This document shows positions 3,337-45,249 of a stretch of DNA of 64,000 bases, in pieces; the first letter of the stretch is position 1, and every line of letters starts with the position of its first letter. The translations under genes were made by a program, and so were the position numbers. The notes below the pieces were generated by a model, which was not told where the DNA came from, did no database searches, and saw only the letters and a list, made by a program, of their open reading frames with translations. The DNA comes from Raja brachyura (Eukaryota), in NCBI GenBank assembly GCA_963514005.1, contig OY740807.1:5952001-6016000 (forward strand), read 5' to 3'.

Positions 3337-3509
3337 GAGAGCGTGTACGAGAGCTGCCAGTGTTTGGAGAAGTGGAGGGGATCTTGCTGGTGGGTGTGAT
3401 TGATGAGCTGTGCTACAGTTCCAGTGGTGAGCTGGAACTGCGTGAGCTGAAAACTCGTGCCCAGCCGACATTCCCCAGTGCTGCCCAAAGGAAGAGCTAC
3501 CACTTACAA
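3337..3509 (+). CDS. EXO5: EXO5 coding exon with PD-(D/E)xK nuclease motifs
   Basis: cttcag| acceptor and CAA|gtaagt donor. Encodes [58 protein letters not shown] (G.IDEL and ELKT motifs). Phases join both neighbouring exons. Confidence 0.93.
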
Positions 3510-7761: not shown

Positions 7762-8229
7762 GTCAGTGTGTACAAGCTTCTGTTTGAGGCTTTGGTCAAA
7801 GGCCAGCTGAAGAAAGACACAATCGTTCAACATCTTCAGTTGCAAACAGAGCGGAGCTTTGGTTCGGAGGTCATGCTGCACGCAAAGAAGATGGGTCTGT
7901 TTGTAAACACATTTGGTGAACTTTTGGATTTGATATTTCTGAACCTGACGTACATTGAGATCCCCACCATTGACGTTCTGAAGATCGAGTACTGCTACCA
8001 AGCCGATGCCTCTGTGATCGGGACGGAAGTGGTGCGCTTTGAGGAGAAGCGGGTTGTAAAGGAGCTGAAACATTACTGCTCCTTCTGGAAGGGCCAGCGG
8101 GAGGCCCAGGGAGTGGATATCGAGGAGGCCTGGAAATGCCGATCGTGCGACTTTGCAGACATCTGTCAGTGGAGAGAGAAGAAAGCCGAAGAAGCTGTCG
8201 CGAGGAATCGAGCAAATCACAGAAAATGA
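7762..8229 (+). CDS. EXO5: EXO5 last coding exon, containing the C-terminal Fe-S cluster cysteines
   Basis: ttaccag| acceptor, phase 0. Encodes VSVYKLLFEAL...GQREAQGVDIEEAWKCRSCDFADICQWRE...HRK*; CxxCx5C is typical of EXO5. Confidence 0.95.
   Translation, partial: VSVYKLLFEALVKGQLKKDTIVQHLQLQTERSFGSEVMLHAKKMGLFVNTFGELLDLIFLNLTYIEIPTIDVLKIEYCYQADASVIGTEVVRFEEKRVVKELKHYCSFWKGQREAQGVDIEEAWKCRSCDFADICQWREKKAEEAVARNRANHRK

Positions 8230-14119: not shown

Positions 14120-14185
<66 letters not shown>
14120..14185. repeat. (CA)n microsatellite
   Basis: Uninterrupted CA repeat of about 33 units. Confidence 0.98.
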
Positions 14186-15414: not shown

Positions 15415-15430
15415 GAAATCGAAAGTGAAA
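15415..15430 (+). promoter_or_regulatory. Tandem ISRE / IRF-E in the promoter of the tapasin-like gene
   Basis: GAAATCGAAAGTGAAA is three GAAA cores at 6-nt spacing, ending about 60 bp before the ATG. An ETS-like CCGGAAG lies at about 15390-15396. Confidence 0.75.
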
Positions 15431-15492
15431 TGACTGGCGTTGTGCTACCACCGGCCCGCTCCACATCTATCTACTCGGCATCTTTGCTCGGC

Positions 15493-15526
15493 ATGTTCCC
15501 TCTGCTCCTTCACATTCTCCTCGCTG
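15493..15526 (+). CDS. TAPBPL: Tapasin-family protein exon 1 (signal peptide)
   Basis: ATG TTC CCT... encodes MFPLLLHILLA, then G|gtaag donor (phase 1). Hydrophobic leader directly downstream of the ISRE. Confidence 0.8.
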
Positions 15527-16338
15527 GTAAGACCACCCGGCGCTGTCAGGCGCTGCGGGCCTGTCCCACTTGCGTGTCCTTGGCACGCACAGTGTTGCTT
15601 GGAACCCGTGTCCGAAGAAGGCACTCGACCCGTCTCTCCATTCCTTCTCCCCAGGGATGCTGCCTGACCCGCCCAGTTACTCCAGCATTTTGCGTCTATC
15701 TTCGGCTTAAAGCGGCGCCTGCAGTTCTTTCCCACACAAACCATTCGCATTGGACCTCCAGCAAACCCTAATGCCCAGTTTAGTCGTTCTAAATCCAACC
15801 TCAGGCAGAGCCAGCAACAATATCCTAAAGCAGGGGCGTGAGTTGCTTCTTTGGGACCATAGAGCACACAACAGTACAGCACAGGAACAGGCCCTTCGGC
15901 CCACAATGTCTGTGCCTAACATGATGCCAAGACCAACTCTTCTCTGCCTGCATGCAATCCATATCCCTCCACTCCCTGCACATCCATGGGTCTGTCCAAA
16001 AGACCACCATCGTATCCGCCTCCACCACCAACTCCAGCAGCGCGTTCCGGGCACCCACCACCCTCTGTGTAAGACAAACCTGCCCCCCACATCTCCTAAC
16101 CCTTTCAGGTTGTTTGAGGAAGGGTCCCGACCCCGAAACGTCGCCTATTCTTTTTCTCCGCAGATGCTGCCTGACCCGCTGAGTTAGTCCAGCACTTTGT
16201 GTCTACATTCTCGTTTATAGACCGTATGGACATCTAGTTTATATGCATATATTCTCAATGAAGTGGCGCTGTTAAATGCGTTGTCCAAGCATTGTTACAA
16301 AAATGTTCCCTTTTGTTTTATACTTTTTACCTCTTCAG

Positions 16339-16518
16339 GGCCAGCGCTGGGCCACAATGGACACACTGATGCAAACAGAAAGTTGGAATGCACCTTTCGA
16401 GAAGAGAAGCAAAATGAAGGGGCTCATATGTTGGACCAGTTGACCATCTCGAGGAAGGCGTTTCTGCTCTTTGGTGGTATCGATTCCGATGAGAAAGCAA
16501 TTCATTTTAAAGTAAAAG
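16339..16518 (+). CDS. TAPBPL: Tapasin-family protein exon 2 (N-terminal domain)
   Basis: ctcttcag| acceptor and G|gtacg donor, phase 1-1. Encodes GPALGHNGHTDANRKLECTFREE...KAFLLFGGIDSDEKAIHFKVK. Confidence 0.8.
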
Positions 16519-17474
16519 GTACGCTGACACATCAAGTGAAGTCAGCAAGCAGGTTTTTTTTTTGGATAGACAACTTCTATTAGCTGCCTTATTGAGGCGG
16601 TACTTCCTGGAGATCTCTTCATAAGGTCATAAGTGATAGGAGTAGAGTTAGGCCATTCGGCCCATCAAGTCTGCTCCACCGTTAAAACCATGGCCGATCT
16701 ATCTCTCCCTCGTATCCCCATTCTCCTGCCTTCTCCCCATAACCTCTGACACTCGCACTAATCAAGAATCTATCCTTCTCTGCATTAAAAATATCCACTA
16801 ACTTGGTCTCCACAGCTGCCTGTGGCAAAGAATTCCACAGATTCACCACCCTTCGATGGCGAGGAGGTCGGTATCCGTGATGGACCAGGCATTGTCCACC
16901 ACTATCTGCAGCCTTTGTTCGTGAGCATTCGACTTCTCTATGATGCACGAGTAATATTTCTAAAGTGCTTTTATGGAGTCACACAGTGTGGAAACAGGCC
17001 CTTTGGCCCAACTCGCCCATGCCGACCCACGTGCCCCATCTACGGTAGTCCCTCCTACCTGCCTTTGGCTCATAACCCTCTAAACCAATCCTATCCATGT
17101 ACCTATCTAAATGTTTCTTCACCATTGTGATAGTCTGGTACCTCAACTACCTCCTCGTGAAGTGTATATGGGTGAATGTATCAAGTACATCATGGATAGG
17201 ACTGGTTTAGAGGGATATAGGGAGACACAAAATGCTGGAGTAACTCAGCGGGACAGGCAGCATCTCTGGAGAGAAGGAATGGGTGAGGTTTCGGGTCGAG
17301 ACCCTTCTGCAGACTGAGGGATATAGGCCATACGCAGGCAGGTGGGACGAGTGTAGATGGGACACGTTGGCCGGTGTGGGCAGATTGGGCCTGTTTCCAT
17401 GCGGTACAACTCGACGATGCTTGTGAATCATCACTCCGCCTAATAGAAATGCGATCTTTTCCTTTTCTTAACAG

Positions 17475-17765
17475 GCTCCTCTGTAGATATTTTCCAATAT
17501 GTGGACGGGAAACACGAGGAATTGGAGTGTGAAATCAGCCGGTATTCCACACACAACCACCATGTTGACTGGCCCCCCCGGGGTGAGGAAACCCCGGGGA
17601 GGCGATGGTTCACCATGACTCTGAAGCACAGACACGGCAAGTTCACCACAACCAGCTTCATGAGGGAACTAAAACTACCGGAGCACGAGGGCAAGGAGCG
17701 GATTGAAGCACCAACCGACGAGGACAATCCACCCATTGGTAACACGGACACCCTCATCATTCAAG
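17475..17765 (+). CDS. TAPBPL: Tapasin-family protein exon 3 (N-terminal domain)
   Basis: ttaacag| acceptor and G|gtaac donor. Encodes GSSVDIFQYVDGKHEELECEISRYSTH...RWFTMTLKH...; CEISRY is a tapasin/TAPBPR signature. Confidence 0.9.
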
Positions 17766-18182
17766 GTAACGCTTTCACACTCGAGGCGTCTAAAGAAGCC
17801 ACCGCAATCTTGCTCAAAATGACACAAGAAAGGACAGGTGTTTTTAAACCATGCATATTTTAGTTTTAACCAATAGTAAATCAAAACTGCACGGTGGCGC
17901 AGCGGTAGTGCTTCTGCCTTACAACGCCGGACACCCAGGTTCGATCCTGACTGCGGGTGCTGTCTGTACGGAGTTCGCACGTTCTCCCTGCGACTGCGTG
18001 GGTTTTCTCCGATGCTCCGGTTTCCTCCCACACTCCAAAGATGTGCTCTACCTACAAAGATTGTAGGTTAATTGGCTTCGGTAAAGAATTGTAGATACAT
18101 ACAGGAAGCAGCCAGAGTCATGATCGAACCTGTGTCTCTGGCGCTGTAAGGCAGCAGCTCTGCTGTTGTGCTGCCGTGCTAT

Positions 18183-20160
18183 AAACATAGAAAATAGGTG
18201 CAGGAGTAGGAGTAGGCCATTAGGCCCGTCGAGCCTGCACCGTCATTCAATATGACCATGGCTGATCATCCAACTCAGTATCCCGTACCTGCCTTCACTC
18301 CATACCCCCTGATCCCTTTAGCCACAAGGGCCACATCTAACTCCCTCTTAAATATAGCCAATGAACTGGCCTCAACTGCCCTCTGTGGCAGAGAATTCCA
18401 CAGATTCACCACTCTCTGTGTGGAAAATGATTTTCTCATCTCGGTCCTAAAAGATTTCCCCCTTATCCTTAAACTGTGACCCCTTGTCCTGGACTTCCCG
18501 AACATCTAGCCTGTCCAACCCCTTAAGAATTTTGTAAGTTTCTATAAGATCCCCCCCTCAATCTTCTAAATTTGAGCGAGTACAAGCCGAGTCTATCCAG
18601 TCTTTCTTCATATGGAAGTCCTGATATCCCAGGAATCAGTCTGGTGAACCTTCTCTGTACTCCCTCTATGGCAAGAATGTCTTTCCTCAGATTTGGAGAC
18701 CAAAACTGCACGCAATACTCCAGGTGTGGTCTCATCAAGACCCTGTACAACTGCAGTAGAACCTCCCTGCTCCTATACTCAAATCCTTTTGCTATGAATG
18801 CTAACATACCATTCACTTTCTTCACTGCCTGCTGCACCTGCATGCCTACTTTCAATGAGTGGTGTACCATGACACCCAGGTCTCGTTGCATCTCCCCATT
18901 TCCTAATCGGCCACCATTTAGATAATAGTCTGCTTTCCTGTTTTTGCCACCAAAGTGGATAACCTCACATTTATCCACATTATACTGCATCTGTCATGCA
19001 TTTGCCCACTCACCCAGTCTATCTAAGTCACCTTGCAGCCTCCTAGCATCCTCCTCACAGCTAACACTGCCCCCCAGTTTCGTGTCATCCACAAACTTGG
19101 AGATGTTGCATTCAATTCCCTCGTTCAGATCATTAATATATATTGTAAATAGCTGGGGTCCCAGCACTGAGCCTTGTGGCACCCCACTAGACACTGCCTG
19201 CCATCCTGAAAAGGACCCGTTCAATCCTACTCTTTGCTTCCTGTCTGCCAGCCAGTTCTCCATCCACATCAATACTGAACCGCCAATACCGTGTGCTTTA
19301 AGTTTGTATACTAATCTCTTGTGTGGGACCTTGTCGAAAGCCTTCTGAAAGTCCAGATATAACACATCCACTGGTTCTTCCTTATCCACTCTACTAGTTA
19401 CATCCTCAAAAAAGTCAATAAGATTCGTCAGACATGATTTACCTTTTGTAAATCCATGCTGACTTTGTCCAATGATTTCACCACTTTCCAAATGTGCTGC
19501 TATCCCATCTTTAATAACTGAATCTAGCAGTTTCCCCACTACCGATGTTAGACTAACTGGTCTGTAATTCCCCGTTTTCTCTCTCCATCCCTTGTTAAAA
19601 AGTGTGGTTACATTAGCTACCCTCCAATCCTCAGGAACTACTCCAGAATCTAAAGAGTTTTGAAAAATTATCACTAAGGCATCCACTATTTCTGGGGCTA
19701 TTCCTTAAGTACTCTGGGATGCAGCATATCTGGCCCTGGGGATTTATCGGCCTTTAATCCATTCAATTTACCTAATACCACTTCCCGGCTAACCTGGATT
19801 TCACTCAGTTCCTCCATCTCATTTGACCCCCGGTCCCCTACTATTTCCGGCAGATTATTTATGTCTTCCTTAATGAAGACAGAACCAAAGTAGTTATTCA
19901 ATTGGTCTGCCATGTCCTTGTTCCCCATGATCAATTCACCTGTTTCTGGCTGCATTTGGCCCTACATTTGTTTTAACTAATCTTTTTCTCTTCACATATC
20001 GATACAAACGTTTGCAGTCAATTTTTATGTTCCCTGCCAGTTTTCTTTCATAATCCATTTTCCCTTTCCTAATTAAGCCCTTTGTCCTCCTCTGTTGGAC
20101 TGAATTTCTCCCAGTCCTCTGGTTGGCTGCTTGCTCTGGCTAATTTTTACACGTCATCTT
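18183..20160 (-). mobile_element. CR1-clade LINE (HER1-like), 5'-truncated and degenerate ORF2
   Basis: Minus-strand ORFs carry RT motifs NYRPVSLTS, LDFQKAFDKVPH, SGVPQGSVLGP and KFVDDTKL, plus the 3' tail GYGVKAGTGY and tttctatg repeats. Confidence 0.93.
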
Positions 20161-21013
20161 TTGTTTTGATTCTGGCTATTTTGTACTTTGTAATTTGTAA
20201 TTAGTGGGGTTAGGTGTATTATTCTCATGTGTACCAAGGTGAAGTGAAAAACTTTGTTTTGCATGTTATTCAGTTAATTCACAACTACAAATCTAGTCAA
20301 ACTCAAGTAGACTAGGTGGAGCAAAGGGGACGATACAGAGTGCAGAATAAAGTTCTCAGCATTGTAGCGCACCAGTTCCAGAGACAAAGTCCAATGTCCG
20401 CAATGGGGTAGAGGTGAATTGGGCAGTACCCTAGCTGATGGAAGGACCGTTCTGAAGCCTGATAACAGAGGGGAAGAAGCTGCTCCTGAGTCTGGTGGTT
20501 ATTTTTCCCATGGGAGAATGACTTTGTAATTGTAAGTTTGAAATATTGGAGCCCTCAATGACACAATTGTTTTTATAATGCCAGTTCCCATAACCATTAT
20601 GAGGGGAAAACTAGAGGTATGAAAAGGTACAGAACAAATCAGAGCCGGCCCTGATGGTCCACGGCTGGCTGTGGAAGAAGTGATAACGAAGGGATACAGG
20701 GAAGCAAACAGTGGAACTAGCAGGATGGCTGCTGTGGGGGAGGGGCGGAGAGAGAGAGAGGGAGTGCAGGGGTTATTTGAAATTAGACATATCAATGTTC
20801 ATACCGCTCAGTTGTAAGCCGCCCAAGCGAAATATGAGGTGCTGCTCCTCCATTTTGTGTGTGTGGCCTCACTCTGACAGTGGAGGAGGCCCAGGACAGA
20901 AAGGTTCGTGTGGGAATGGGAGGGGGAGTTAAAATGTACTCCAGCTTTAGTGTCTCTCTTTGACATAAGCCAGCATCGGCAGTTCCTTCCGACACATTTT
21001 ACCTGCGCTCTTA

Positions 21014-21233
21014 AGGGCCTGTCCCACTTTCATGACCTAATTCACGACCTTTTTTACTCGTGGACATTTTTCATCATGTTGAAAAAACGCCCCGACCTAC
21101 TTGATGCCACGGGTACCTACGACTAGCATCATGACCTACCTACGACCTCCTACGACCTCGTGACCTGCGAGTATGAGTCAAGGGCAAACTCGGCAGAGGT
21201 CGTGAATTAGGTCGTGAAAGTGGGACAGGCCCT
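21014..21233. mobile_element. PIF/Harbinger-type MITE
   Basis: Long TIR beginning AGGGCCTGTCCCACTTTCA with TTA TSD. Confidence 0.82.
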
Positions 21234-21572
21234 TTAGATCCCTCTGATCTACAACACTGCCATTCACGGTATTGGTCCCGCCCCGGTTAGACTTTCCAAA
21301 ACGCACCACCTCGCACTTATCTGCATCAAACTCCATTAACCAATCCTCAGCTCGCCTACCCAACCGATCAAGATCCTGGTGTGTTATGCATAGTATTATC
21401 TGATCAGTTTGGATAGCATGCAAAACCAAGTTTGTCACTGTGGTATACGTGACAATAACAAATATAACGCTAAAACATAATATAATTTACCCACTTAGAA
21501 ATGCCGTAATATTTTTTGACCTCAGCAGGGAATAGCGGAGGAATGGTTTACAAACCCCCTTTTCCAACAATA

Positions 21573-21929
21573 CAGGACCATCGCCCGGTTCTCCGGCCCC
21601 CTTGGTTCCCGAGCCTTGCCGTACTATCCGTTTTGCCGGACCGTCAGAGGTCACGGCCCGCAAAGTCGGCCTCGGAAGTGGGACATGGGAACGGATCTGC
21701 CGGCTCTGGCCGGGCCGGAGTTCCAGAGCCCCGGCCGCAGGGGGCAAATCTGACCTGGCGATCGGCCGCGGAAGTCCCCCGATGAGATCGAGATCGGCTG
21801 CCTCACCCGGACTAGGGGCCACGCGCTCAGGGGGACTTGCGGGGGGAATGTCAACTGCGCTCTCGTGATTTTGTCCGGATTAAAGGAGGTGCTGGACCAC
21901 CAGTTGCCGGAAGATCGGGGATGGACCTG
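21573..21929. mobile_element. CpG-rich MITE, pogo/Tigger-like (further copies at 41038-41375 and about 49975-50362)
   Basis: Three diverged 340-390 bp copies with imperfect TIRs (ta|CAGGACCAT... / ...ATGGACCTG; ...GGCGGAGCTG|ta) and the shared subterminal motif ccggc(a)cccttggttc. Confidence 0.6.
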
Positions 21930-22294
21930 GATTACAAAAGAATTAAAGCCTAGACGGCAATAAATAGGTAGACTAAAATGGTACGCATCTGAGGTAAATA
22001 AATGTGTAGGAAGGAACTGCAGATGCTGGTTTAAATCGAAGATAGACACAAACAGCTGGAGTAACTCAGCGGGTCAGGCAGCAGCATCTCTGGAGAAAAG
22101 GAATAGGTGATGTTTTCGGTCGAGACCGTTCTTGCGATCCGGCTCTTATCCGAAATGACACCTCTTCCGTTTCTCCAGAGATGTTGTCTGGCCCGCTGAG
22201 GTACTCCAGCATTATGTGTCTTTCTAAGGTACTTAAAACGTGGGTGATATCATTAATAATCGATGTGATACTGTCGTTTCTTTTCTCTTGCTAG

Positions 22295-22633
22295 TGAACT
22301 ATATTATCCGCACACGAACTCCATTGGTCAGAAGCAAAATGAAGCAAGACGTGGTTCTGGACTGCGGCTACAAGATTGACCGCAGGATGGACTTTTACAT
22401 TGACTGGAGGTATCAGCACCGAGGGGTGAGGAAGAAACTGTTTGTCTACAACGGGAAGAACCAGCACACCGAACAGATCGAGAAGGGAGTTGGAGCATTC
22501 TTGGATCGGATCGGGGACGGGAACGCATCCATCCGCATTAACAACGTCGACATTAGCAGCGAAGGAACCTACACCTGCTTGGTGTATGTCCCTCCACTCT
22601 TTGGAACGCACACCATCAATCTGGAGATATGGG
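22295..22633 (+). CDS. TAPBPL: Tapasin-family protein exon 4 (IgV domain)
   Basis: ttgctag| acceptor and G|gtaag donor. Encodes IRTRTPLVRSKMKQDVVLDCGY...IDWRYQHRG...GNASIRI...EGTYTCLV (tapasin-like WRxQHRG and IgV C-W-C pattern). Confidence 0.93.
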
Positions 22634-23939
22634 GTAAGATGCCAATGTTGATGACACGACCAGCTTAGTTTAGCGATACCGCGCGGAAACAGGCCGTTCG
22701 GCCCACTAAATCCAGCAATCCCCGCACACTAACACTACCCTACACACTCTAGGGACAATTTACTCTTCTACCAAGCCAATTAACCTACAAACCTGTTGGT
22801 CTTTGGAGTGTGGGAGGAAACTGAAGATCTTGGAGAAAACCCTCACGGGGAGAAGGTACAAACACCGTGCAGACAGCACCCGTAGTCAGGATCGAACCCG
22901 TGTCTCTGGCGCTGTGAGGCAGCAACTCTACCGCTGCGCCACCGTGCCAGCCTTGAGTATTGAAGTTAGATTAATATTTTTGGGTGGTGGAGATATTAGC
23001 AGAAAATCAGGAGGAAATCTTCAGCTGGAGTAAGGCAGCGGGTCAGGCAGCATCACTGGAGAACATGGATGGGCGATTTTTTTGGTCATGTCCCTTCTTC
23101 AGACGAGTCCCATCCCTGAAGAAGGGACCCCGAACCATAATATCACCTATCCTTAAAGATAGATACAAAAAGCTGGAGTAACTCAGCGGGACAGGCAGCA
23201 TCTCTGGAGAAAAGTAATAGGTGATGTTTCGGGTTCAGACCCTTCTTCAGACTCTCGAACCAAAACGTCACATATTCCTTTTCTCCAGAGATGTTGCCTG
23301 TCCCGCTGAGTTGCTCCAGCTTTTTATGTCTCTCTTCGGTGTGAACCAGCATCTGCAGTTCCTTTGTTTAGGAAAAACGACTGGGCTTATATTCACTGGA
23401 ATTTAGAAGGATGAGAGGGTATCTTATAGAAACATATAAAATACTTAAGGGATTGGACAGGCTAGATCCAGGAAAAATGTTCCCGATGTTGGGGGAGTCC
23501 AGAACCAGGGGCCACAGTTTAAGAATAAGGGGTTGGCCATTTAGGACTGAGATCCGGAGAGTGGTGAATCTGTGAAATTCTCAGCCACAGACGGCAGTGA
23601 AGCCCAATTCCATGGATGTTTCCAAAAGAGAGTTAAATATAGCTCTTAGGGCTAATGGAATCAAGGGATATGGGGAGAAGGCAGGAACAGGGTACTGATT
23701 TTGGTTGATCAGCCATGATCATATTGAATGGCAGTGCTGGCTCATAGGGCCAAATGGCCTCCTCCTGCACCTATTGTCTATGTTTCTATGTCAGTCTTCG
23801 GAGTGGGATTAATTACTGTATGGCAAGTTCAGTGCCAGGGTGAAGTGCAGAGTTCTGTGGTTAAGATTAATGCAAATACTTGATAAAACATCTTCAATCT
23901 TCACCGAGCATTTAACATGGTTGAATCCCACATGGTTAT

Positions 23940-24408
23940 AACTCATGTCCCACCAGCATGCAACCTGCATGCGGCAAGCGCCACCAAACCAGAAGCGGGG
24001 GTCACACGGAGGTCGGGTGAGTGACGCGAAGTTGGAGCGAAGTCCGCAGTAAGTTTGCAAGGACGGAGGGACACAGAGGCACACACAGACAGGGTCACGG
24101 AGGCACATAGAGAGGGTCACGGAGGCACATAGAGAGGGACATGGAGGCACATAGAGAGGGCCACGGAGGCACGACGTCGAGGCGGTGCGTAATACGTTGA
24201 GGCGGCTGCGGGCCGACAGGCCGTTGCCGTGCGGAATTTTGAACACGGTCAGTTTTTCGGAGCCCCGCGCGATGTCGGGACCAGCTCCGCACAACTCTAT
24301 ACGGCTCCGGCGATCGAAGTGGGACCGGCCCCGCGAGGCCGGACGGCTCAAGCGACCACGTTAGGTCGCGCTCACCGCATGGACTCGCATGCTGGTGGGA
24401 CAGGCCCT
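23940..24408. mobile_element. PIF/Harbinger-type MITE (same subfamily as 7133-7707, opposite orientation)
   Basis: Internal sequence is closely similar to the reverse complement of 7133-7707; right TIR GTGGGACAGGCCCT followed by TTA. Confidence 0.8.
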
Positions 24409-24474
24409 TTACAGTAAATTAGCAAACTAAATATGCAGAGAATGGAGGGATATGGACCATGTGAGTTTTAATCC

Positions 24475-24630
24475 TATAAAATGTGTACGTTTTAAACCTA
24501 AAACGTTTCTATGCCTTAAAACCACGATGTTTGTACGTTTTAAAACTACACCATTTCTCTGTTTCAAACCGACAACGTTTCTGTTTTAAAACTATGAAGT
24601 TTCTATGTTTTAAAACTTTAAAAAACTTTG
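24475..24630. repeat. Degenerate AT-rich minisatellite with a unit of about 21 bp
   Basis: Recurrent gttttaaaac core at about 21-nt spacing. Confidence 0.7.
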
Positions 24631-25402
24631 ACGAAAGGCCTGTGTGGAGTGAATGTGGAGAGGATGTTTCCACTAGTGGGAGAGTCTGCGGCCAGAGTCT
24701 CAGAATAAACGGACGTACCATTAGAATGGCGATGAGAAGTAATTTCTTTAGTCAGAGGATGGTGAATCTGTGGAATTCCTTGCCACAGAAGGCTGTGGAG
24801 GCCAAGTCAGTGGATATTTTTAAGGCAGAGGTGGACAGATTCATGATTCTTTGGAGCGCAGAAGGTTAAGGGGGGACTTGATTGAGGTCTTTAAAATGAT
24901 GAAAGGGTTAGACAGAGTTGACGTGGATAAACGTCTCCCATTGAGGGTAGGGAAGATTCAAACAAGAGGGCATGACATGAGAATTAAGGGACAGAAGTTT
25001 AGGGGTAACATGAGGGGGAATTTCTTTTCTCAGAGAGTGGTGGCTTTGTGGAATGATCTTCCAGCAGAAGTGGTGGAGGCAGGATCGATTTTAACATTTA
25101 AAAGTAAGGTGGATAGGTATATGGACGGGAAGGGAATGGAGGGGTATGGTCTGAGTGCAGGTAGATGGGACTAGGGGAAAATAAATGGTCGGCACGGACT
25201 GGAAGGGCCGAGAAGGCCTGTTTCCGTGCTGTAATTGTTATATGGTCATATGGTTATGATTAGTACGGGTGTCAGGAAGGCAGGAGAATGGGGTTGAGGG
25301 AAAGATAGATCAGCCATGAATGAATGGGAATAGACTTGATGGGCCGAATGGCCTAATTCTGTGCCCAGCACATATGAACTTACAAAGTTTCAATTTAATT
25401 TA

Positions 25403-25629
25403 AGGGCCTGTCCCACCTGCTGAGTTTTTCGGTGACTGCCGGCATCATTGACTGACGTATCAGGTCACCAAAAAATACGTGGCGTGATAACGTGTGACGC
25501 GCGGTGTTTTTTTCAAGGGTCGTAACATTTTTCTTTGTCACCGCTGGATTTTGAAATGTTCAAAATCTTTTGGCGGCACCGATATGATGCCGGCACTCGG
25601 CGAAAAAATCGCTAAGTGGGACAGGCTGT
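25403..25629. mobile_element. PIF/Harbinger-type MITE
   Basis: AGGGCCTGTCCCAC ... GTGGGACAGGCTGT with TTA TSD. Confidence 0.75.
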
Positions 25630-26174
25630 TTAGTTTATTGTCACGTGTACCGAGGTACAGTGGAAAGCTTTTGTTGCATGCTAACCAGTCAGCGGAAAGA
25701 CAATACATGATTACAATCGAGCCATTAGCAGCCCATAGATACATGATAAGGGAATAACGTTTAGTGCAAGGTAAAGCCAGCAAAGTCCATTTAAATGTAG
25801 TCCGAGGGTCTCCAATGAGGTCAGGACTATGTTTTTGAAGGTACAAAATGTGTCAGATTCCAACCTACAGTGATAAACGTCAGCCGAATGCTCATCATCA
25901 CACTGTGGCAAAACCATCCCCTTTGATGTCTTGTTTTCACACCCTACCCTTCCATATCTCTGTGCCTCCCTCTCCCCTGAAAATGTAGAATCGATCATTG
26001 TCGGGGCCTCCTCCACTGTCAGAGTGAGGAAAATTGGAGGGACAGCACGTCATATATCGTTTGGGCAGCTTACACCATATGAAGATTGACTTCTCTAACG
26101 TCACGTACCCTTGCTTTCCCTCTCCATCCCCCCTCCTCTCTAGTTCGACCAGTCTGACTGTCCTCTGATTAAAT

Positions 26175-26352
26175 ATGTATAAGAAGGAACTGCAGATGCT
26201 GGAAAATCGAAGTGCTGGAGAAACTCAGCGGGTGCGGCAGCATCTATGGAGCGAAGGAAATAGGCAACGTTTCGGGACGAAACGTTGCCTATTTCCTTCG
26301 CTCCATAGATGCTGCCACACCCGCTGAGTTTCTCCGGCACTTTTGTCTACCC
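26175..26352. mobile_element. Palindromic unit made of two inverted Penelope termini
   Basis: Near-perfect inverted arms of about 60 bp (26210-26340) centred on aacgtttcg-gga-cgaaacgtt, flanked by the direct repeat ctgattaaat (26165-26174 / 26353-26362). Confidence 0.75.
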
Positions 26353-26616
26353 CTGATTAAATTTTATCTCAGTATGCTTCGTTGTCACCTACTCCTCGCT
26401 AACAATGATCAATTCTACATTTACCTGGGCCCTCGTCCACTTTGATGTCACGTTTTAACACCTAACACCTCCTTATCTCTGTCTCTTCCTCATGCCCTGA
26501 CTCTCGGTCTGAAATTCCGGGTCTCGACCCGGAACGTCGCCGATTCCTTCTCTCCGGAGATGCTGTGCCTGTCCCGCTGAGTTACTCCTGCATTGTGTTG
26601 TCTCTCCCCTGTGCAG

Positions 26617-26943
26617 AGGCGCCCACAGTGTCCCTGAGCCACAGCTCGCTCTCGTTGAGGGAGGGCGACGAGCAGAAGCTGGCGTGCAGTGCGGAGCGGT
26701 ACTACCCGCTGGACGTGACGGTGCGCTGGCAGTGGCGGCAGGGCGGAGAGCACCTGCTGCCCAACTACCTGGACAACACCATTTTCTCCCCACACGTGCC
26801 GAACAGGGATGGCACCTTCAACGTGACCAGTTACTTCCGCTTCACCGCCTCCCTCAAGGACAACGGAGCCACGTTCATTTGTCACGTCGACCACGTCAGC
26901 TTGGAGAAGACAATCAAACGCTACGTCCATGTAAAAGTGCAAG
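26617..26943 (+). CDS. TAPBPL: Tapasin-family protein exon 5 (IgC1 domain)
   Basis: gtgcag| acceptor and G|gtaaa donor. Encodes EAPTVSL...LACSAERYYPLDVTVRW...NRDGTFNVTS...FICHVDHVSL (C1-set signature). Confidence 0.94.
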
Positions 26944-26983
26944 GTAAACAATGAGCAGGCATTTTAAATACTGCCTGCAAACG

Positions 26984-27870
26984 GGATGGCGGGGCTGTCA
27001 TATGCTGAGAGAATGGAGCGGCTGGGCTTGTACACTCTGGAGTTTAGAAAGATGAGAGGGGATCTGATTGAAACATATAAGATTGTTAAGGGCTTGGACT
27101 CACTAGAGGCAGGAAACATGTTCCCGATGTTGGGGGAGTCCAGAACCAGGGGCCACAGTTTAAGAATAAGGAGTAAAGGGCCTGTCCCACTAGCGCGCGA
27201 TTAGACGCGACAAGCGCGACCTACCGTGGTCGCTTTAGTCGCCCGGCCTCGCGTGACCCTGTCCCACTGCGATCGCCGGAGTCTCGTCGAGTTGTGTGTA
27301 GCTGGTGTCGACATCGCGCGTAGTGTCCAAAAACCGACACTGCTTAAAAAATTACGCGCGGCAAAATCCTGTCGCGCAGAACGTGATTAACGTGATGACG
27401 TTTTGACGTTGTGCGTCTTCAGCGTGGCGTTGCGTGATGACGTCACTGCCCGACGTCGTGCAACGCGCATGCTCATGCGCATCGTCACGTGATGAAAAAT
27501 AACGTCCTTCCTTCGGACGTCGCGCGTGTAATCGCGCGCTAGTGGGACAGGCCCTTCACTCGCACCGGGATCGCCTGACCCCCACGCGACCCCCGCGTCC
27601 GAATTTGTCGCGCTTGTCGCGTCTAATCGCGCGCTAGTGGGACAGGCCCTTAAGCCATTTAGAACGGAGATGAGGAAACACTTTTTCTCACAGAGAGTGG
27701 TGAGTCTGTGGAATTCTCTGCCGGTGGAGGCCGGTTCTCTGGATACTTTCAAGAGAGCTAAATATAGCGGATATGGGGAGATGGCAGGAACGGGGTACTG
27801 ATTGGGGATGATCAGCCATGCTCACATTAAATGGGCTGAATGGCCTACTCCTGCACCTATTGTCTATTGG
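26984..27870 (+). mobile_element. CR1 LINE 3' fragment interrupted by a Harbinger MITE
   Basis: MAGLSYAERMERLGLYTLEFR...TRGHSLRIRSK; the sequence resumes as gccatttagaacggag after 27653. Confidence 0.88.
27177..27650. mobile_element. PIF/Harbinger-type MITE, apparently young, inserted in CR1
   Basis: Perfect 44-bp TIR. The TAA duplication is demonstrated by the host CR1 sequence (gagTAAgccat). Extra internal right end at 27529-27555. Confidence 0.9.
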
Positions 27871-29683
27871 CTATTGAAACGGGTCCTTCAGCCCACACGG
27901 ACCATCCATCACAGCATGGCGACACAGCGGTACAGCTGCTGCCTCACGGCGCCTGGGATCTGGGTTCGATCCTGACCTCCGGTGCTGTCCGTGTATTGTT
28001 TCCACGCTCCCTCTATTGCCACGTGGGTTTCCTCCGGATGCTCCGGTTTCCCCCCACATCCCAAAGGCGTGCGGGTTTGTAGGTTAATTGTTCTTTGAGC
28101 TGTCCCCTTAGTGTGTGGGGAGTGGACGAGAACGTGGGATAACATGGAATGAGCGTGAACGGGTGATCGATGGTCGGAGTCGACCAGGTGGGTGGAGGTA
28201 AGCCATCATCTGCAGTTCCTCGTATGGACAACCTGCAAAGCCGCACGTCTTTGGGAAGCGGGAGGAAACCAGAGCATCCAAAGGAAATCCACACGGTCAC
28301 AGGGAGAACGTGCACACTCCACACAGACAGCACCCGTAGTCAGGATCAAAGCCGGGTCTCTTGTACTGTAAGGCAGCAACTCTACAAGATGCACCAATGT
28401 GCCGTCCCTATTGTTAAGAATGAGTGCAGAACTATTTGTTTCTGATGGTGGATGCATGAAGGCTGAACAAAACCAGGAGACAGTTCCTCACCATGTCTCT
28501 GGGAACTTAATAGTTTAGAGATACAGCGCGGAAACAGGCCCACCGAGTCCGCACCGACCAGCGATCCCCGCCCTCTAACACTATCCTACACACACTAGGG
28601 AAAATCTGCATTTACACCAAGTAAAAATTAACCTGTCAACCTTTGGAGTGTGGGAGGAACCTAAGATCTGGGAGAAATCCCGCGCAGGTCGCAGGGAGAA
28701 CGTACATACTTTGTACAGACAAGCACCTGTAGTCAGGATCGAACCCGGGTCTCTGCCGCTGTAAGGCAGCTATTCTACCGCTGCACCACCGTGCGGCCCT
28801 TGTTTCCAATCTACGCAATGAAGTGTCGCACTATTCCAGGATGTGGAGTTTTCGGAGAGGGTGCAGAAGGGGTTTACCATAGTGACGCCTGGATTAGAGG
28901 GTTTATTTTTTTCTAGAGTTTGGGAGGTTGAAGGGAGACCAGATAGAGGTATGTAACATCATGAGAGGTGTGGATTGGGGAGACAGTCTATGAAGGGAAT
29001 GTCCAGAGATAGACGCCATACCTTCCAGGTGAGAAGGGGAAAGTTTAATGGAGTTGAGCTGGGTAGGTTTTTTTTACACAGAGGGCGGTGGGTGTCTGGA
29101 GCGTGCTGCCAGGGGTGGTGTTGGGGCAGATGCAATGGTGGCATTTAAGAGGGGCACATAGATATGCAGGGAATGGATGGACATGGATCACGTTGATGAA
29201 CTGTACAATGCAAGGTCCAGGAAGCGAGCGGGCATCTCTCACCCTGGCCACAAACTCTTTGAATCACCTCCCTCTGGAAGGCGACTCCGGACTGTCAAAG
29301 CTGCCGCAGCCAGACATAAAAACAGTTTTTATCCACGAGTAGTTCTACTCAACAGCCAAAAATCTGTGGCCTCCCTTCGATCTGGTATTTTGTTGGTTCA
29401 CGTGCTTGATCAATGGTGTTTGATCATTAATGTTTTATTATTATTAATATCTAGTGTATTCTGAGTCATTCGTAACTGTCACTGTATGTCATGTTGTTAC
29501 TTATGGGCGGAGCACCAAGGCAAATTCCTTGTATGTGAATACTTGGCCAATAAACTTAATTACTTACTTACATGCAGCCACAGGGGAGATGAGTTTAACG
29601 TCATCATGCTCCACATGGGCTGAAGTGCTTCTTCCTGTCCTAAGTCTCAAATCAGTAATGCTCAATATTTTTTTATTCCACAG

Positions 29684-29776
29684 CACGACCTCAGATATTA
29701 TTTTACATCTTAATTTTAATATTGTTCCTATTCGTCTGCGCTATTGTGATCATCCTACTAATTCACTTGAATAAAG
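29684..29776 (+). CDS. TAPBPL: Tapasin-family protein exon 6 (transmembrane)
   Basis: ttttattccacag| acceptor and G|gtgag donor, phase 1-1. Encodes ARPQILFYILILILFLFVCAIVIILLIHLNK. Not present in the ORF track. Confidence 0.88.
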
Positions 29777-30882
29777 GTGAGTGCTGTCTGTTTTATTTTA
29801 CATGTTATTAATGAGTGGGGAGGTGACCCCATCTCTCGAGGATTCCTTTAGTCTAGAGAGACCGCGTGGAATCAGGCCCTTCAGCCCACCAGACAGAGTC
29901 CGTCCAGACCAGCGATCCTCCCTCACACCAGTTCTATCCCACACATTAGGGACAATTTACAATTTACAGAAGCCAATTTGTCTACAAACAGCTACATCTT
30001 TGGAGTGTGGGAGGAAACTGGAGAAAACAAACACGATCACGGGGAGAACATGCCAACTCCACACAGACAGCACCCGTAGACAGGGTCGAACCCGGGTCCC
30101 TGGCGCTGTCAGGCCGCAACTCGACCGCTGCCCTTTGTTGATGTATAGTTTTGGGTTTGTTCTGCACAAGATGACGTCACCTGATGTTTACCGGGGCGGC
30201 CCGGCGGCGCAGCGGTAGAGTTGCGAAGTTGCAGCGCCAGAGAACCGGGTTCGATCCTCACTACGGGTGCTGCCTGTGTGGAGTTGGCATGTTCTCCCCG
30301 TGATCGTGTGTGTTTTCTCCAGTTTCCTCCCACACTCCAAAGATGTGGATGTTTGTAAGCTAGTTGGCTTCTGTAAATTGTAAATTGTCCCTAATGTGTA
30401 GGATAGTGTCAGTGTACGGGAGGATCGCTGGTCTTCACGGTCTCAGTGGGCTGAAGGGCCTGATTCCACGCGGTCTCTCTCGTCTAATCTTTTCTCCGGG
30501 TGCTCCGGTTTCCTCCCACATTCCAAGACGTACGGGTTTGTTGGTTAATTGGCTTCAGTGAAAATTGTAAATTGTGCCTAGTGAAGAGGATAGTGTTAGT
30601 GTGCGGGGTCGCTGGTCGGCACGGACCCGGTGGGCCGAAGGGCCTGTTTCCACGTTGTATCTCTAAACTAAGCTAAACTAAACTATTCATGACCAATGTG
30701 TTTCCATTCCTGTAGCTTTAGTGGAGAGGAAGGGACGAGTTTGTGCACATAGCCGTGTGAATTTTGCCCTGTAGTGTATCCATTTTGTAAACGTATTTTG
30801 AACGAAGCTAGCAATGATGATGCATCAGTGGTGTGGTGGTGCTGACATGCGTTGTAATGCCGCTGTATCCTTTGCTTTGCAG

Positions 30883-30899
30883 TTATGGACAAAAACAAG
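30883..30899 (+). CDS. TAPBPL: Tapasin-family protein exon 7 (17-nt cytoplasmic micro-exon)
   Basis: tttgctttgcag|TTATGGACAAAAACAAG|gtaaga. Encodes VMDKNK and converts phase 1 to phase 0, which the last exon needs. Confidence 0.75.
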
Positions 30900-31231
30900 G
30901 TAAGAGAAATATTGTCTTTCAATACTACATTTATTCATGCAGGAAAACAGTACAAAACATTCCCAAGTTCCTAAACCACTGGAGCAGAAATAGGCCATTT
31001 GACCAATCTCGTCTACTCCGCCATTCAATCATGGCTGATCTTTCTTTCCCTCTCAACTCCATTCTCTTGGCCTCTCCCTATAACTCCTCACACCCGTACC
31101 AATCAAGTATCTTTCAATCTTGGCCTTATAAATAACCAATGACTTGGCCTCCATAGCTGTCTGGCAATGAGTTCCACAGCTTGACCACCATCTGACCAAA
31201 GACATTCCTCCTGATCTCCTTTCTAAAGTTA

Positions 31232-31616
31232 CAGTGCATTCAGAAAGTATTCAGACCCCTTCACTTGTTGTACATTTTGTTACGTTACAGCCTTATTTTA
31301 AAATGCATTAAATTCAATTTTTTTTAATCATCACTCTACACACAATACCCCAGAATGAAGAAGTGAAAACACGTTTATAATTTTTTGCAAAGTGATTAAA
31401 AAGAAATAATTGAATAAATATTCAGACCCTTTGCAACGACACTCAAAATTGAGCTTAAGGTTCATTCTGTTTCCATTGATTATCCTTGAGATGTTTCTAC
31501 AACTTAGATTGGTCCACCAGGGGTAAATTAAATTGATCGTACATGATTTGGAAAGGCACATCCCTGCCTATATAAGGTCCCACAGTTGACAGTGCATGTC
31601 AGAGCAAAAACCAAGC
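31232..31616 (+). mobile_element. Left end of a Tc1-like transposon (IR/DR type), truncated before the transposase
   Basis: TA|CAGTGCATTCAGAAAGTATTCAGACCCCTT with an inner direct repeat tattcagaccctttg at about 31419; ends at gtcagagcaaaaaccaagc. Confidence 0.8.
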
Positions 31617-32125
31617 AACATTGCAGGGTCGGCCTGGCCAAGTGTAACCATGGTGACATCCGCTGCTGTAGGCCGCGTCCCGTCCACACTCTCGGCCTCT
31701 TGGAGAGGCCCCCGGTCCAGTCGAGCCCCAGGCTGCTGCAGGGCCTCCAGCGGCCACTCCCTCATCGAGGCCGTGCACTCCCTCCCGGCCCTCCAGGTGG
31801 GCCCCGTGGGCTCTCATAGAAACATAGAAACATAGAAAATAGGTGCAGGAGTAGGCCATTCGGCCCTTCGAGCCTGCACCGCCATTCAATATGATCATGG
31901 CTGATCATCCACAATTAGTATCCCGTACCTGCCTTCTCTCCATACCCCCAGATCCCTTTAGCCACAAGGGCCACAGCTAACTCACTCCTAAATATAGCCA
32001 ACGAACTGGCCTCAACTACCCTCTGTGGCAGAGAGTTCCTGTGGCTCTCGATCTGCGGCGGGCGAGGCGGGTTCCGGTCCACGGCGCGGGTTTTCCACTC
32101 ATGTTTCCTTTGTCTCCCCCATCAG

Positions 32126-32140
32126 AAGAAGCCGTATTGA
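32126..32140 (+). CDS. TAPBPL: Tapasin-family protein exon 8 (KKPY-stop, di-lysine ER-retrieval motif)
   Basis: tttgtctcccccatcag|AAG AAG CCG TAT TGA. The assembled CDS is 1296 nt (431 aa). Confidence 0.8.
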   Translation, partial: KKPY

Positions 32141-32719
32141 GCCCAGGGAAGAGCACTTCGGGCAGGATGCAGCTGCTGAGGCTGAGAAAGGATCTAATCT
32201 CATGCAGAAACCCTTTGTGTCCTTGGAACGTATTCAAGTGCCTTCCCGCCAATGAACCTCTTCAACACTGGTTGCTGTCGGCCAATGCGGTGGAGATTGG
32301 ACACACCAGCAGCCCACACGGACCCATTGAGGCGAATCACCCAGTTATTTGTTTGCTGGGGGAGGAATATTGACCAGGACACCAGACCCACTCATTGGTG
32401 CATCACATCCACTTGACCCCCCTCCCCCCAGGAAATGGAAAGTGGAGCCTCCATTTAAAGTTCCACCCAATGGGCGTTTAATGAGGATTCTTACTGACGA
32501 TGAGGAATACTGGTCTTGAAATGAATCTGAACCTACAACCTACCGACTTTGAGGCAGCAGCTTTAGCCATGGAGTCCTAGAGAGACGCGCCGGCACACCA
32601 AGTCTGCACTGGCCACCAATCAACAAATGGGATGGCATAGAACTGGTATGGACGGGTCGGACTTGGTGGGCCGAAGGGCCTTTTCCATGGTGAATAAGTG
32701 CTCTAAAGTCTAAGGTCTT

Positions 32720-33022
32720 CCTGTCTTTCACTGTTATCCTGCTTCGTTTCACAGTTCGTATCCCTTTGCCATCACCTCTCCCGCAGCCAACAATGGACCA
32801 TTGTGGGCTCCACCTCTCCTTGATCATCGGTGCCGGGCGGCTCTGATTTGTTCTTCTCATGCCTTTCATTCATTTGTTCTTTGCACCTTTTTCACACCTC
32901 TAGTCCCCGTCTCCCAGGCACTCTCAGTCTGAAGAAGGGTCTCGACCCGAGACGTCAACTGTTCCTTTTCCCCAGAGATGCTGCCCGGCCCGCTGAGTAA
33001 CTCCAGCACTTTGTGTCTTACC
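32720..33022 (+). mobile_element. Penelope-derived 3' tail in the putative 3'UTR of the tapasin-like gene, with a mutated hammerhead (32926-32960)
   Basis: CTGAAGAAGGGTCTCGACCCGAGACGTC followed by the family tail agagatgctgcccggcccgctgagtaactccagcac. Confidence 0.75.
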
Positions 33023-33090
33023 TTCTTGCCTTAGTTGGCTGCAGTACTTAGACCAAGATGAGGAAAGAAATGTGTTGCTTTCTTGGAATT

Positions 33091-33096
33091 AATAAA
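33091..33096 (+). terminator. Candidate poly(A) signal of the tapasin-like gene
   Basis: First AATAAA I found downstream of the KKPY stop (about 950 nt of 3'UTR). Confidence 0.5.
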
Positions 33097-33654
33097 GTAA
33101 CCTGATCCCATTTTCGAAGCTGAGCCGAGATCCCAATGGATACCCCTTTATTCCAAGGGTTCCTAAGGTTAAGTGCATTTGCGGGTTGGTATTTGGATGG
33201 TGTGGCACAGAGATGGCTGGGGTTTGATTTCTTAAAGAGGAGATCTGGAAGTTCCCCTTCCAAAGGTATTGGCCATGGCTCATTGGGTAGTGCTCTAACC
33301 CCTCAGCCGGAAGGTTGTGAGTTCAAGTCCAGGGACCTCTGCACAAATTAATACAGGTGAATACTGATGGAGTGCTGCACTGCCAGAGGTAATGTTTTTC
33401 AGATGAAACGTTAAAACTAAAGCCTTGTCTATGCTCTCTGCTGAAGACGAACTTGGGAGTCATCCCTGTTGTTGAAACCCCCCCAAAAAACCCTAAAACA
33501 TCATCAGTCAGCGTAATGAGTATGACGTTGGGAGGTCACGTTGCAGTTGTAAAAGACATCGGTGAGGCCGCATTTTGAGTTGTGTTCAGTTCTGGGAACC
33601 ATATTAGGGAAAGATGTTAAGTTGGAAAGAATGCGGAGAAGATTCACGCAGATG

Positions 33655-43309: not shown

Positions 43310-45249
43310 TTTTCTCACCTCAGTTTTAAATGGCCTCCCCTTTATTCTTAGACTGTGGCCCCAACATTGAGAACATTTTTCCTGCATCTAGCTTGTCCAG
43401 ATCCCCTCTCATCCTTCTAAATTCCAGTGAATACAAGCCCAGTCTTTCCAATCTTTCATCACATGACAGTCCCGCCATCCTGGGCATTAACCTCGTGAAC
43501 CTACGCTGCACCCTCGATTGCAAGGATGTCCTTCCTCAAATTAGGAGACCAAAACTGCGCACAATACGTGGTCTCACCAGGGCCCTGTACAACTGCAGAA
43601 GGACCTCTTTACTCCAATACTCAAATCCACTTGTTAGCTCTCTTCTCTGCCTGCTGTACCTGCATGATTACTTTTAGTGACTGATGTACAAGGACACCCA
43701 GGTCTCGTTGCACTTCGCTTTTTCCTAATCTAACACCATTGAGATAATAATCTGCCTCATTGTTCTTGCCGCCAAAGTGGATAACCTCACATTTATCCAC
43801 ATTATTTGCCATGCATCTGCCCACTCACCCAACCTGTCCAAGTCACCCTGCAACCTCCTAGCATCCTCTTCGCATTTCACACTGCCACCCAGCTTTGTGT
43901 CATCTGCAAATTTGCTAGCGTTACTTTTAATTCCATCATCTAAATAATTAATATATATTGTAAATAGTTGCGGCCCCAGCACCGAGCCTTGCGGCACTCC
44001 ACTCGCCACTGCCTGCCATTCTGACAGGGACCTGTTAATTCCTACTCTTTGTTTCCTGTCTGCCAACCAATTTTCTATCCATGTCAACACCCTACCCCCA
44101 ATACCATGTGGTCTAATTTTGTCCACTAATCCCCTGTGCGGGACCTTATCAAAGCCTTTCTGAAAGTCTAGATACACTACATCCACTGGCACCCCTTCAT
44201 CCATTTTACTTGTCACATCCTCAAAAAATTCCAGAAGATTAGTCAAGCATGATTTCCCTTTCATAGATCCATACTGTCTTGGACTAATCCTTTTACTGCT
44301 ATCCAAATGCCCCATTATTACCTCTTTAATAATTGACTCCAGCATCTTCCCCACCACCGATGTCAGGCTAACTGGTCTGTAATTCCCTGTTTTCCCTCTC
44401 GCTCCTTTCTTGAAAAGTGGGATAACATTAGCTACCCTCCAATCCACAGGAATTGATCCTGAATCTATAGAACTTTGGAAGATGATCACCAATGCGTTCA
44501 CGATTTCTAGAGCCACCTCCTTGAATACCCTGGGATGCAGACCATCAGGCCCTGGGGATTTACCAGCCTTCAGTCCTATCAGTCTACCCAATACTATTTC
44601 TCACCTAATACAAATTTCTTTCAGTTCCTCTGTCTCACTAGATCCTCGGTCCTCTAGTACATCTGGGAGATTGTTTGTGTCTTCCTTAGTGAAGACAGAT
44701 CCGAAGTACCTGTTCAACTTCTCTGCCATTTCCTTGTTCTCCACAATAAATTCACCTGTTTCTGCCTTCAAGGGACCCACATTTGTCTTTACTAATCTTT
44801 TTCTCTTAACATACCTAAATAAGCTTTTACTGTCCTTCGTTATATTCTTGGCCAGCTAATCCGCGTACTTCATCTTTTCAGCCCGTATTGCCTTTTTTGT
44901 TTCCTTCTATGGTCATTTGAAAGTTTCCCAATCCTCCGGCTTCCGGCTACTCTTTGCAATGTTATACACCTATTATTTTAGTTTTATTCTATCCCTAACT
45001 TCTCTTGTCAGCCACGGTTGCCTCTTACTCCCCTAAGGATCTTTCTTCCTCTTTGGAATGAAATGATCCTGCATCTTCTGGATTATGCCCAGGAATTCCT
45101 GCCATTGGTATTCCATCGTCATTCCTGCTAGGATTCTTTTCCAGTCGACCTTGGCCAGCTCCTCTCTCATGCCTTCATAGTCCCCTTTGTTCAACTGCAA
45201 CACTGACACTTCTGATTTAACCTTCTCCCTCTCAAATTGCAGATTAAAG
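43310..45249 (-). mobile_element. CR1-clade LINE (HER1-like) fragment
   Basis: 288-aa RT ORF 43725-44591 (KSPGPDGLHPRV, GVPQGSVLGP, KFADDTKL) with frameshifted flanks. Confidence 0.93.

Follow-up and report, generated by a model that had tools for sequence, protein, structure and literature searches.

A skate member of the third tapasin lineage, TAPBPL, with altered class I-contact residues and a candidate role in chaperoning class I-type molecules

A window of 64,000 nucleotides from the skate Raja brachyura (the whole stretch analysed here: contig OY740807.1 of assembly GCA_963514005.1, positions 5,952,001 to 6,016,000) was found to carry a tapasin-like gene of 8 exons on the + strand, between positions 15493 and 32140, which, judged from its sequence, is an intact ortholog, from a cartilaginous fish, of the third tapasin lineage, TAPBPL. 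That lineage was named by Grimholt in 2018 (PMC5824609) and is distinct from TAPBPR, whose human gene symbol is also TAPBPL; the shared symbol, together with automatic names, conflates two distinct genes in non-mammalian genomes, and here TAPBPL always denotes the third lineage. Several residues of the face that contacts class I molecules of the major histocompatibility complex (MHC) are replaced in the encoded protein. We propose, with a probability of roughly 45%, that it may act as an interferon (IFN)-induced, TAP-independent chaperone for nascent class I-type molecules poor in peptide, retrieved by coat protein complex I (COPI), and as a weak editor of folded classical class I; this reading draws on residue comparisons, a structural model and analogy.

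A search with exon 4 retrieved 15 chondrichthyan proteins, from sharks, rays, skates and a chimaera, and profiles then brought in the bony-vertebrate orthologs, TAPBPR and tapasin (TAPBP). The nearest named proteins were skate 'tapasin-like' entries, with 87% identity to Amblyraja P0214. Both a quick tree of 53 rows and a careful tree of 22 rows (LG+G4) gave three clades, and in the latter the window protein fell inside the TAPBPL clade with a support of 100/100. Coelacanth, sturgeon, teleost, frog, bird and wombat proteins belong to the same clade, and its Xenopus member P0208 has the same sequence start as the frog TAPBPL of PMC5824609. Approximately unbiased (AU) tests rejected trees in which the window protein was forced together with TAPBP (p-AU 0.00027) or with TAPBPR (p-AU 0.000395), so that the phylogeny places it with neither, and the assignment to a third lineage made in the initial annotation was borne out. 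Profile scores pointed the same way (573 bits for TAPBPL, 263 for TAPBP and 231 for TAPBPR, the TAPBPL profile including close skate orthologs). All three clades contain a member from each of Heptranchias, Latimeria, Protopterus and Acipenser. The names of the orthologs in RefSeq are inconsistent ('tapasin-like', 'tapasin-related protein') and could suggest a plain skate ortholog of TAPBP or TAPBPR, or a mispredicted model. We consider this explanation extremely improbable and refuted, given the two AU tests, the four species with members of all three clades and a gene model that aligns with its orthologs along the full length. Since TAPBPL occurs in skates, rays, sharks and chimaeras, and all three paralogs are found in one shark, the three-way split is dated before the divergence of cartilaginous and bony vertebrates. 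Two entries had confusing labels: P0274, first labelled TAPBPL, was placed with TAPBPR by the 53-row tree and counted accordingly, and the TAPBPL-clade protein P0275 (Paramormyrops) is mis-annotated in UniRef as 'Dehydrogenase/reductase (SDR family) member 13b.2', a name perhaps derived from a neighbouring dhrs13 gene.

The exons, whose borders all read AG/GT by coordinates, are as follows:

15493..15526, + strand: exon 1, with the start codon and the larger part of the predicted signal peptide (from the N-terminal ends of P0214 and P0215, two skate orthologs)
16339..16518, + strand: exon 2, first part of the N-domain, with Cys29 and the editing-loop equivalent (ortholog tblastn)
17475..17765, + strand: exon 3, second part of the N-domain, with Cys90, Gly83 and Met119
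22295..22633, + strand: exon 4, IgV domain with Cys192/Cys263, sequon N245, the TN5/TN6-equivalent residues and hairpin R214 (Pfam and the Text S4 alignment of PMC5824609)
26617..26943, + strand: exon 5, IgC1 domain with Cys305/Cys370 and sequon N350 (contigs of related animals in runs X1 and X2)
29684..29776, + strand: exon 6, uncharged transmembrane (TM) helix with Cys409 and without the tapasin-type acidic cap
30883..30899, + strand: exon 7, a 17-nt micro-exon that sets the frame of exon 8
32126..32140, + strand: coding part of exon 8, KKPY and stop, followed by the 3' untranslated region

The spliced coding sequence of 1296 nt encodes 431 aa plus the stop codon. Introns 1 to 6 are of phase 1 and intron 7 is of phase 0. 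When four family members served as tblastn queries, one copy of the gene was found within the window. Pfam assigned exon 4 to the V-set (E 6e-11) and exon 5 to the C1-set (E 5e-11), and no Pfam family was found for exons 2, 3 and 6. Matches of the N-domain exon to virginiamycin B lyase were at chance level with no Pfam family and were rejected. A signal peptide is predicted from hydrophobicity and from a helix at residues 2-18 of the ortholog model. The luminal part contains six cysteines (29, 90, 192, 263, 305 and 370), probably forming three disulfides paired as C18-C101, C191-C262 and C300-C361 of TAPBPR (PMC5441866). Exon reading and Pfam thus agree with the previously described 431-aa protein (signal peptide, N-domain, IgV, IgC1, TM and tail) with two sequons and an uncharged TM; its count of six luminal cysteines was also correct, but a seventh, C409, which sits within the TM helix, had been overlooked. 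Of the sequons, N245 and N350, the first occupies the N233 position of tapasin. The hydrophobic helix (about 395-417) lies within a stretch of 28 residues free of D, E, K and R, and the 14-residue tail ends in KKKPY, which satisfies both KKxx and KxKxx.

The AlphaFold model of the skate ortholog P0214 (pLDDT 89.3) was used for fold comparison. Tapasin or TAPBPR chains filled ranks 1 to 11 of the Foldseek search, with B7-H6 next, and Pfam together with this model shows the tapasin-family architecture of a fused N-domain and IgV, IgC1, TM and short tail. A fold search against viral models gave generic Ig-domain matches only.

For the family-wide features we counted residues in 90 aligned sequences hand-picked from 306 proteins, namely the window protein, 15 chondrichthyan and 30 bony-vertebrate TAPBPL, 13 TAPBPR, and 11 chondrichthyan and 20 bony-vertebrate TAPBP; the set excludes fragments, duplicate isoforms and proteins with multiple Ig domains, and rows outside the tree were grouped by motifs. 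The C94 equivalent, a cysteine in 13/13 TAPBPR, is absent from all 46 TAPBPL rows and is Gly83 in the window protein, as had been claimed. The lack of an ERp57-type Cys95 was likewise correctly noted. It does not, however, set the protein apart from tapasin, because a C95-type cysteine is present in none of the 11 chondrichthyan and in only 4 of the 20 bony-vertebrate tapasins, and is thus missing from 27/31 non-mammalian tapasins. The argument that a protein without Cys95 is ERp57-independent and therefore unlike tapasin was accordingly rejected. Chicken tapasin has been reported to chaperone without co-factors (bioRxiv 2023.06.23.546255). The four tapasins with a cysteine at the human C95 position are all from squamates (P0187, P0249, P0256 and P0257), a group not included in PMC5824609, which reports C95 in none of its non-human tapasins; the ERp57 disulfide may therefore not be limited to mammals. 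An extra TAPBPL cysteine, 11 residues after the C95 position, was proposed in PMC5824609 as a 'unique' functional thiol. It is found in 11/30 bony-vertebrate and 0/16 chondrichthyan rows (Met119 in the window protein) and, since it is also missing from frog, turtle and opossum in the alignment of PMC5824609 itself, it is not a defining feature of TAPBPL.

With regard to TAP docking, a cryo-EM study of 2026 (PMC12758552) located E391/D392, F397 and F401 of tapasin at the TAP interface, with E391/D392 forming salt bridges to TAP, and excluded K408 as a critical contact. Consequently, the reasoning that a TM without lysine cannot bind TAP was rejected: the TM indeed lacks a lysine, as the initial annotation had stated, but Lys408 is not critical and what matters is the missing E391/D392 cap. 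This acidic cap is present in 31/31 TAPBP and in none of the 46 TAPBPL or 13 TAPBPR, and its absence is a sound basis, and a better one than the absent lysine, for predicting TAP independence of TAPBPL. A basic TM residue is visible by eye in 11/11 chondrichthyan tapasins (9/11 by regular expression, two rows being misplaced) and in no position of the window TM. The uncharged C-terminal stretch measures 28 residues in the window protein versus 15-18 in shark tapasins, and long TM helices favour exit from the endoplasmic reticulum (ER).

Binding to COPI requires a lysine at -3 plus another at -4 or -5, and both KKxx and KxKxx bind (PMC3521961), so the dilysine retrieval motif claimed for the tail stands. 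A dilysine end is present in the window protein, in 14/15 chondrichthyan and 20/30 bony-vertebrate TAPBPL, in 2/13 TAPBPR and in 26/31 TAPBP, and a KPY C-terminus in 35/46 TAPBPL and 0/44 of the other proteins. Six goby-like TAPBPL entries (P0027, P0028 and P0030-P0033) have no dilysine end, and localisation may differ in some teleosts.

The splicing of the TM and tail exons bears on one alternative, namely that TAPBPL is a B7/B7-H6-like immunoregulatory ligand held intracellularly and let out to the surface, for instance when the micro-exon is skipped. Skipping exon 7 would indeed shift the frame and delete the KKPY dilysine end. B7-H6 is moreover the top or equal-top PDB sequence match and follows directly after the tapasin family by fold, it clusters with TAPBP and TAPBPR in PMC13262535, and a T-cell co-inhibitory role has been reported for human TAPBPR (PMC8103088). 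The read comparison covered positions 26500-33200, exons 1 to 4 resting on orthologs. One 1804-letter contig of run X1, from a related animal and guessed to be RNA, covers exon 5 (positions 576-901 of the record, with 10 differences from the window across the exon) and the last exon (2-465), an X1 contig carrying the 3' untranslated region to 32584, and the 110 letters between exons 5 and 8 equal exon 6 (93) plus exon 7 (17). A contig from run X2, marked as probably DNA, has the same exon-only pattern, and both could derive from a processed copy. Runs X6 and X8 had no cover at exon 5 or the last exon and are uninformative on expression. Fourteen of the 15 chondrichthyan orthologs in the alignment end in KKKPY, including assembly-derived skate proteins with an identical tail. 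Thus the exon 5-to-8 spacing and the skate tails agree with the predicted 3' junctions. No exon-7-skipped form was seen in the contigs over 26500-33200, where the sole informative spliced contig includes the micro-exon, judged by length. This inclusion, the tapasin N-domain, which B7-H6 lacks, and the KPY end kept in most TAPBPL rows all speak against a surface ligand, which we regard as improbable.

We then compared the class I-contact face. The TAPBPR mutants TN6 (E205K/R207E/Q209S/Q272S; PMC9956121) and TN5 (I261K; PMC4718805) abolish binding to folded class I, and the residues at the five positions concerned (205, 207, 209, 261 and 272) are almost invariantly E-R-Q-I/L-Q in the 44 TAPBP and TAPBPR rows. 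The window protein reads D-R-Q-T-T (D205, R207, Q209, T262 and T273). The Q272 position is Gln in 44/44 TAPBP and TAPBPR versus 1/46 TAPBPL, and in 14/30 bony-vertebrate TAPBPL it is Ser, matching the TN6 substitution; the I261 position is I or L in 44/44 versus T in 12/16 chondrichthyan TAPBPL; and the hairpin Gly (G214) is present in 44/44 versus 0/46, being Arg in the window protein. Chondrichthyan TAPBPL keep D/E205 (16/16), R207 (16/16), Q209 (15/16) and the N233-type sequon (16/16). These contact-residue changes relative to TAPBP and TAPBPR, as read from the alignment, are new here.

Other residues are specific to TAPBPL and nearly invariant from sharks to marsupials: T97 (44/45), P105 (44/45), D197 (45/46), H198 (44/46) and K302 (43/46), with W104 also near-invariant (W104-P105). 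The window protein itself carries Arg198 (codon in 22295-22633) at the position that is His in 44/46 rows, and Val342 (codon 26796-26798) where 41 of the other 45 rows have K or R; a basic residue at 342 is also absent from other skates, and the X1 contig has the identical base at 26797, in codon 342.

In the mechanism that we favour, binding of an interferon regulatory factor (IRF) at an upstream response element would induce the gene together with the class I pathway. The product, a type I glycoprotein, would have three disulfides once in the ER and would carry no luminal thiol that is free, and therefore would form neither a tapasin-type ERp57 disulfide nor a C94-type link to UGT1. Because the acidic cap is absent and the uncharged helix is long, it would not dock onto TAP, and could drift to the ER-Golgi intermediate compartment and cis-Golgi and return with COPI via KKKPY. 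Its concave N-IgV surface would bind a class I-type heavy chain with β2-microglobulin as a natural, partial TN6 variant, a likeness suggested by the replacement of the TN5 Ile, of the TN6 Gln and of the hairpin Gly. The TN6 mutant does not bind folded class I, yet when overexpressed it still rescues nascent HLA-A*02:01 in tapasin-knockout human cells (PMC9956121), so TAPBPL may be a chaperone more than an editor. The 'peptide editor' role initially suggested is less likely given the TN5, TN6 and hairpin changes, and the residue signature predicts that TAPBPL chaperones nascent class I-type molecules and edits folded classical class I poorly.

Several points weigh against this proposal. Sharks and skates retain three of the four TN6 residues, and the replacements Ile to Thr and Gln to Thr are milder than the laboratory mutations. 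The editing-loop equivalent (role of the loop taken from PMC11913765) is full-length, with 23 residues from Cys29 to Ala52 compared with 17-23 in TAPBPR and 19-23 in TAPBP, and has a hydrophobic tip in chondrichthyan TAPBPL. The TN6 rescue was obtained under overexpression in human cells (PMC9956121), and according to a review of 2022 no information exists about the interactions of TAPBPL (PMC9372762). The dilysine end is missing in 10/30 bony-vertebrate TAPBPL, including gobies, some of these probably being poor gene models, so that ER retrieval is not universal in the lineage. Judged by sequence alone, the Ig domains are as close to B7-H6 as to TAPBPR (E 1.4e-29 versus 5.8e-29). MHC binding, ER localisation and induction in elasmobranchs are predictions made from sequences; the counts come from kin sequences, which are not independent events, and the alignment contained no mammalian, bird or teleost tapasin, human positions being transferred through a published alignment and armadillo TAPBPR.

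Some of these points would fit TAPBPL as a full TAP-independent editor of classical class I, similar to TAPBPR without the UGT1 link, whose contacts had co-evolved with non-mammalian class I. The fold shared with tapasin and TAPBPR, the D/E205, R207 and Q209 kept in chondrichthyans and the full-length loop are in line with such an editor; the C94A mutant of TAPBPR still edits (PMC5441866), and salmon cells without TAPBPR transcripts induce TAPBPL, for which the authors suggest a similar role (PMC7573153). On the other hand, TAPBP and TAPBPR of the same sharks carry the invariant E-R-Q-I-Q set, so shark classical class I needs no changed surface, and the TAPBPL of amphibians, reptiles, birds and marsupials have for the most part lost E205, R207 and Q209 as well. 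We hold a full editor to be rather unlikely. A dedicated chaperone or editor for non-classical class I or another MHC-like lineage, lost in placentals with its client, seems to us similarly doubtful. A class I-contact face that diverged while TAPBPL-specific residues stayed conserved fits a different, conserved partner, the TAP docking motif is absent, and TAPBPR binds the MHC-like MR1 (PDB 7rno); the client is nevertheless purely hypothetical, and the TAPBPL-specific conserved residues may be structural. By way of speculation, and with little confidence, TAPBPL could be a third TAP-independent arm of MHC quality control, a TN6-like chaperone for a non-classical or MHC-like lineage that was lost jointly with it in placentals. 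If so, the residues conserved within TAPBPL itself would indicate where the hypothetical client binds. A client of its own would also point to an antigen-presentation route that placental mammals have lost.

The first step of the chaperone mechanism proposed above is consistent with a predicted interferon-response site:

15415..15430, + strand: triple-GAAA element of the interferon-stimulated response element (ISRE)/IRF-binding element (IRF-E) type, 63-78 bases 5' of the ATG

This is the sole match in 64 kb to GAAANNGAAANNGAAA, a pattern picked after the site was seen, with 0.02 matches expected, and the sole match to the IRF-E core GAAASYGAAA, with 0.71 expected anywhere. The gamma-activated site (GAS)-type pattern TTCNNNGAA was not found within 700 bases 5' of the ATG, the nearest match being at 14679 and the window holding 9 versus 20.7 expected. 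All three salmon TAPBPL genes rise by log2 1.5-3.0 after IFN-gamma (PMC7573153), and interferon induction of the skate gene, which had been claimed before, is likely in view of the predicted element and the salmon orthologs. An upstream in-frame ATG at 15430 (+), overlapping the end of the ISRE, would add 21 residues (window 15430-15492); the Leucoraja model P0215 carries a similar N-terminal extension, and the stretch is probably promoter rather than coding.

The surroundings of the gene comprise two other genes:

1226-1328, 3338-3508 and 7763-8227, + strand: exons of EXO5 (exonuclease V; Pfam PF09810)
about 47880-48070, 50416-50493, 53230-53345, 54945-55060 and 58500-58625, - strand: 3' exons of a convergent gene

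EXO5, which has introns here, ends about 7 kb 5' of the tapasin-like gene. The convergent gene downstream, which had no Pfam or Atlas match, we tentatively take to be RAP1GAP2-like; the open-licence literature had nothing relevant on rap1gap2 together with exo5. Reading the 64-kb window revealed no gene for TAP, PSMB or class I, and CD4 and LAG3 are not neighbours of the tapasin-like gene within it. PMC10751288 places the MHC tapasin of sawfish on chr34; the sawfish sequence that carries TAPBP (P0234) is 19.9 Mb long, and the one with TAPBPL 39.0 Mb. The window, in which no MHC gene was seen, and the separate sawfish sequences support the location outside the MHC that had been proposed. Supplemental Table 1 of PMC10751288 lists a sawfish 'tapbpl' on chr21, apart from a2m (chr46), with cd4 and lag3 not found; possibly the third-lineage gene was filed there as TAPBPR. 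P0003, the sawfish TAPBPL, is on the 39.0 Mb sequence. The introns and flanks are rich in SINE/LINE-type repeats (short and long interspersed elements; very high contig depth), long open frames in apparent retrotransposon remnants lie at 43725-44855 (-) and 61875-62767 (+), and positions 14120-14185 hold a (CA)33 microsatellite.

The family and lineage are already known, and the skate-type copy adds a member. For TAPBPL, PMC5824609 already reported no C95, no TM lysine and an ER signal in some members while leaving function open, and the lineage is also named in the reviews PMC9586880 and PMC9372762; the description of a little-studied third lineage was thus correct, although the lineage had been named and these features noted in bony vertebrates. 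Orthologs are present in RefSeq under mixed names. In the open-licence literature we found neither a functional study of third-lineage TAPBPL nor its placement in cartilaginous fish.

Compared with known systems, the window protein resembles B7-H6 (NCR3LG1) in the IgV-IgC1 pair, both by sequence profile (E about 1e-29) and by structure, but B7-H6 is a surface ligand of natural killer cells without a tapasin N-domain, and the window protein has a dilysine retrieval end. With TAPBPR it shares three predicted disulfides, the lack of a TAP-docking motif, a non-MHC location and the loop length, whereas identity is 22-28%, C94 is absent, the end is dilysine and the equivalents of Q272, I261 and G214 are replaced. 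With tapasin it has in common the N-IgV-IgC1 fold (best Foldseek match, TM-score 0.63/0.70), the dilysine end, the N233-type sequon and the equivalents of R187 and Q189; it differs in its 22-32% identity, in having no acidic TM cap, basic TM residue or MHC linkage, and in the replaced equivalents of Q261, L250 and the hairpin Gly. Finally, the TAPBPL of PMC5824609, which lists teleosts, gar, frog, turtle, birds and opossum ('shark' being absent from its supplement), and whose salmon orthologs are IFN-gamma-induced (PMC7573153), belongs to the same clade and agrees with the window protein in the six conserved cysteines, the sequon at the N233 position, the TM without lysine and the KPY C-terminus, the window protein lacking the extra cysteine of the 2018 proposal (Met119) and departing from the lineage at R198 and V342.

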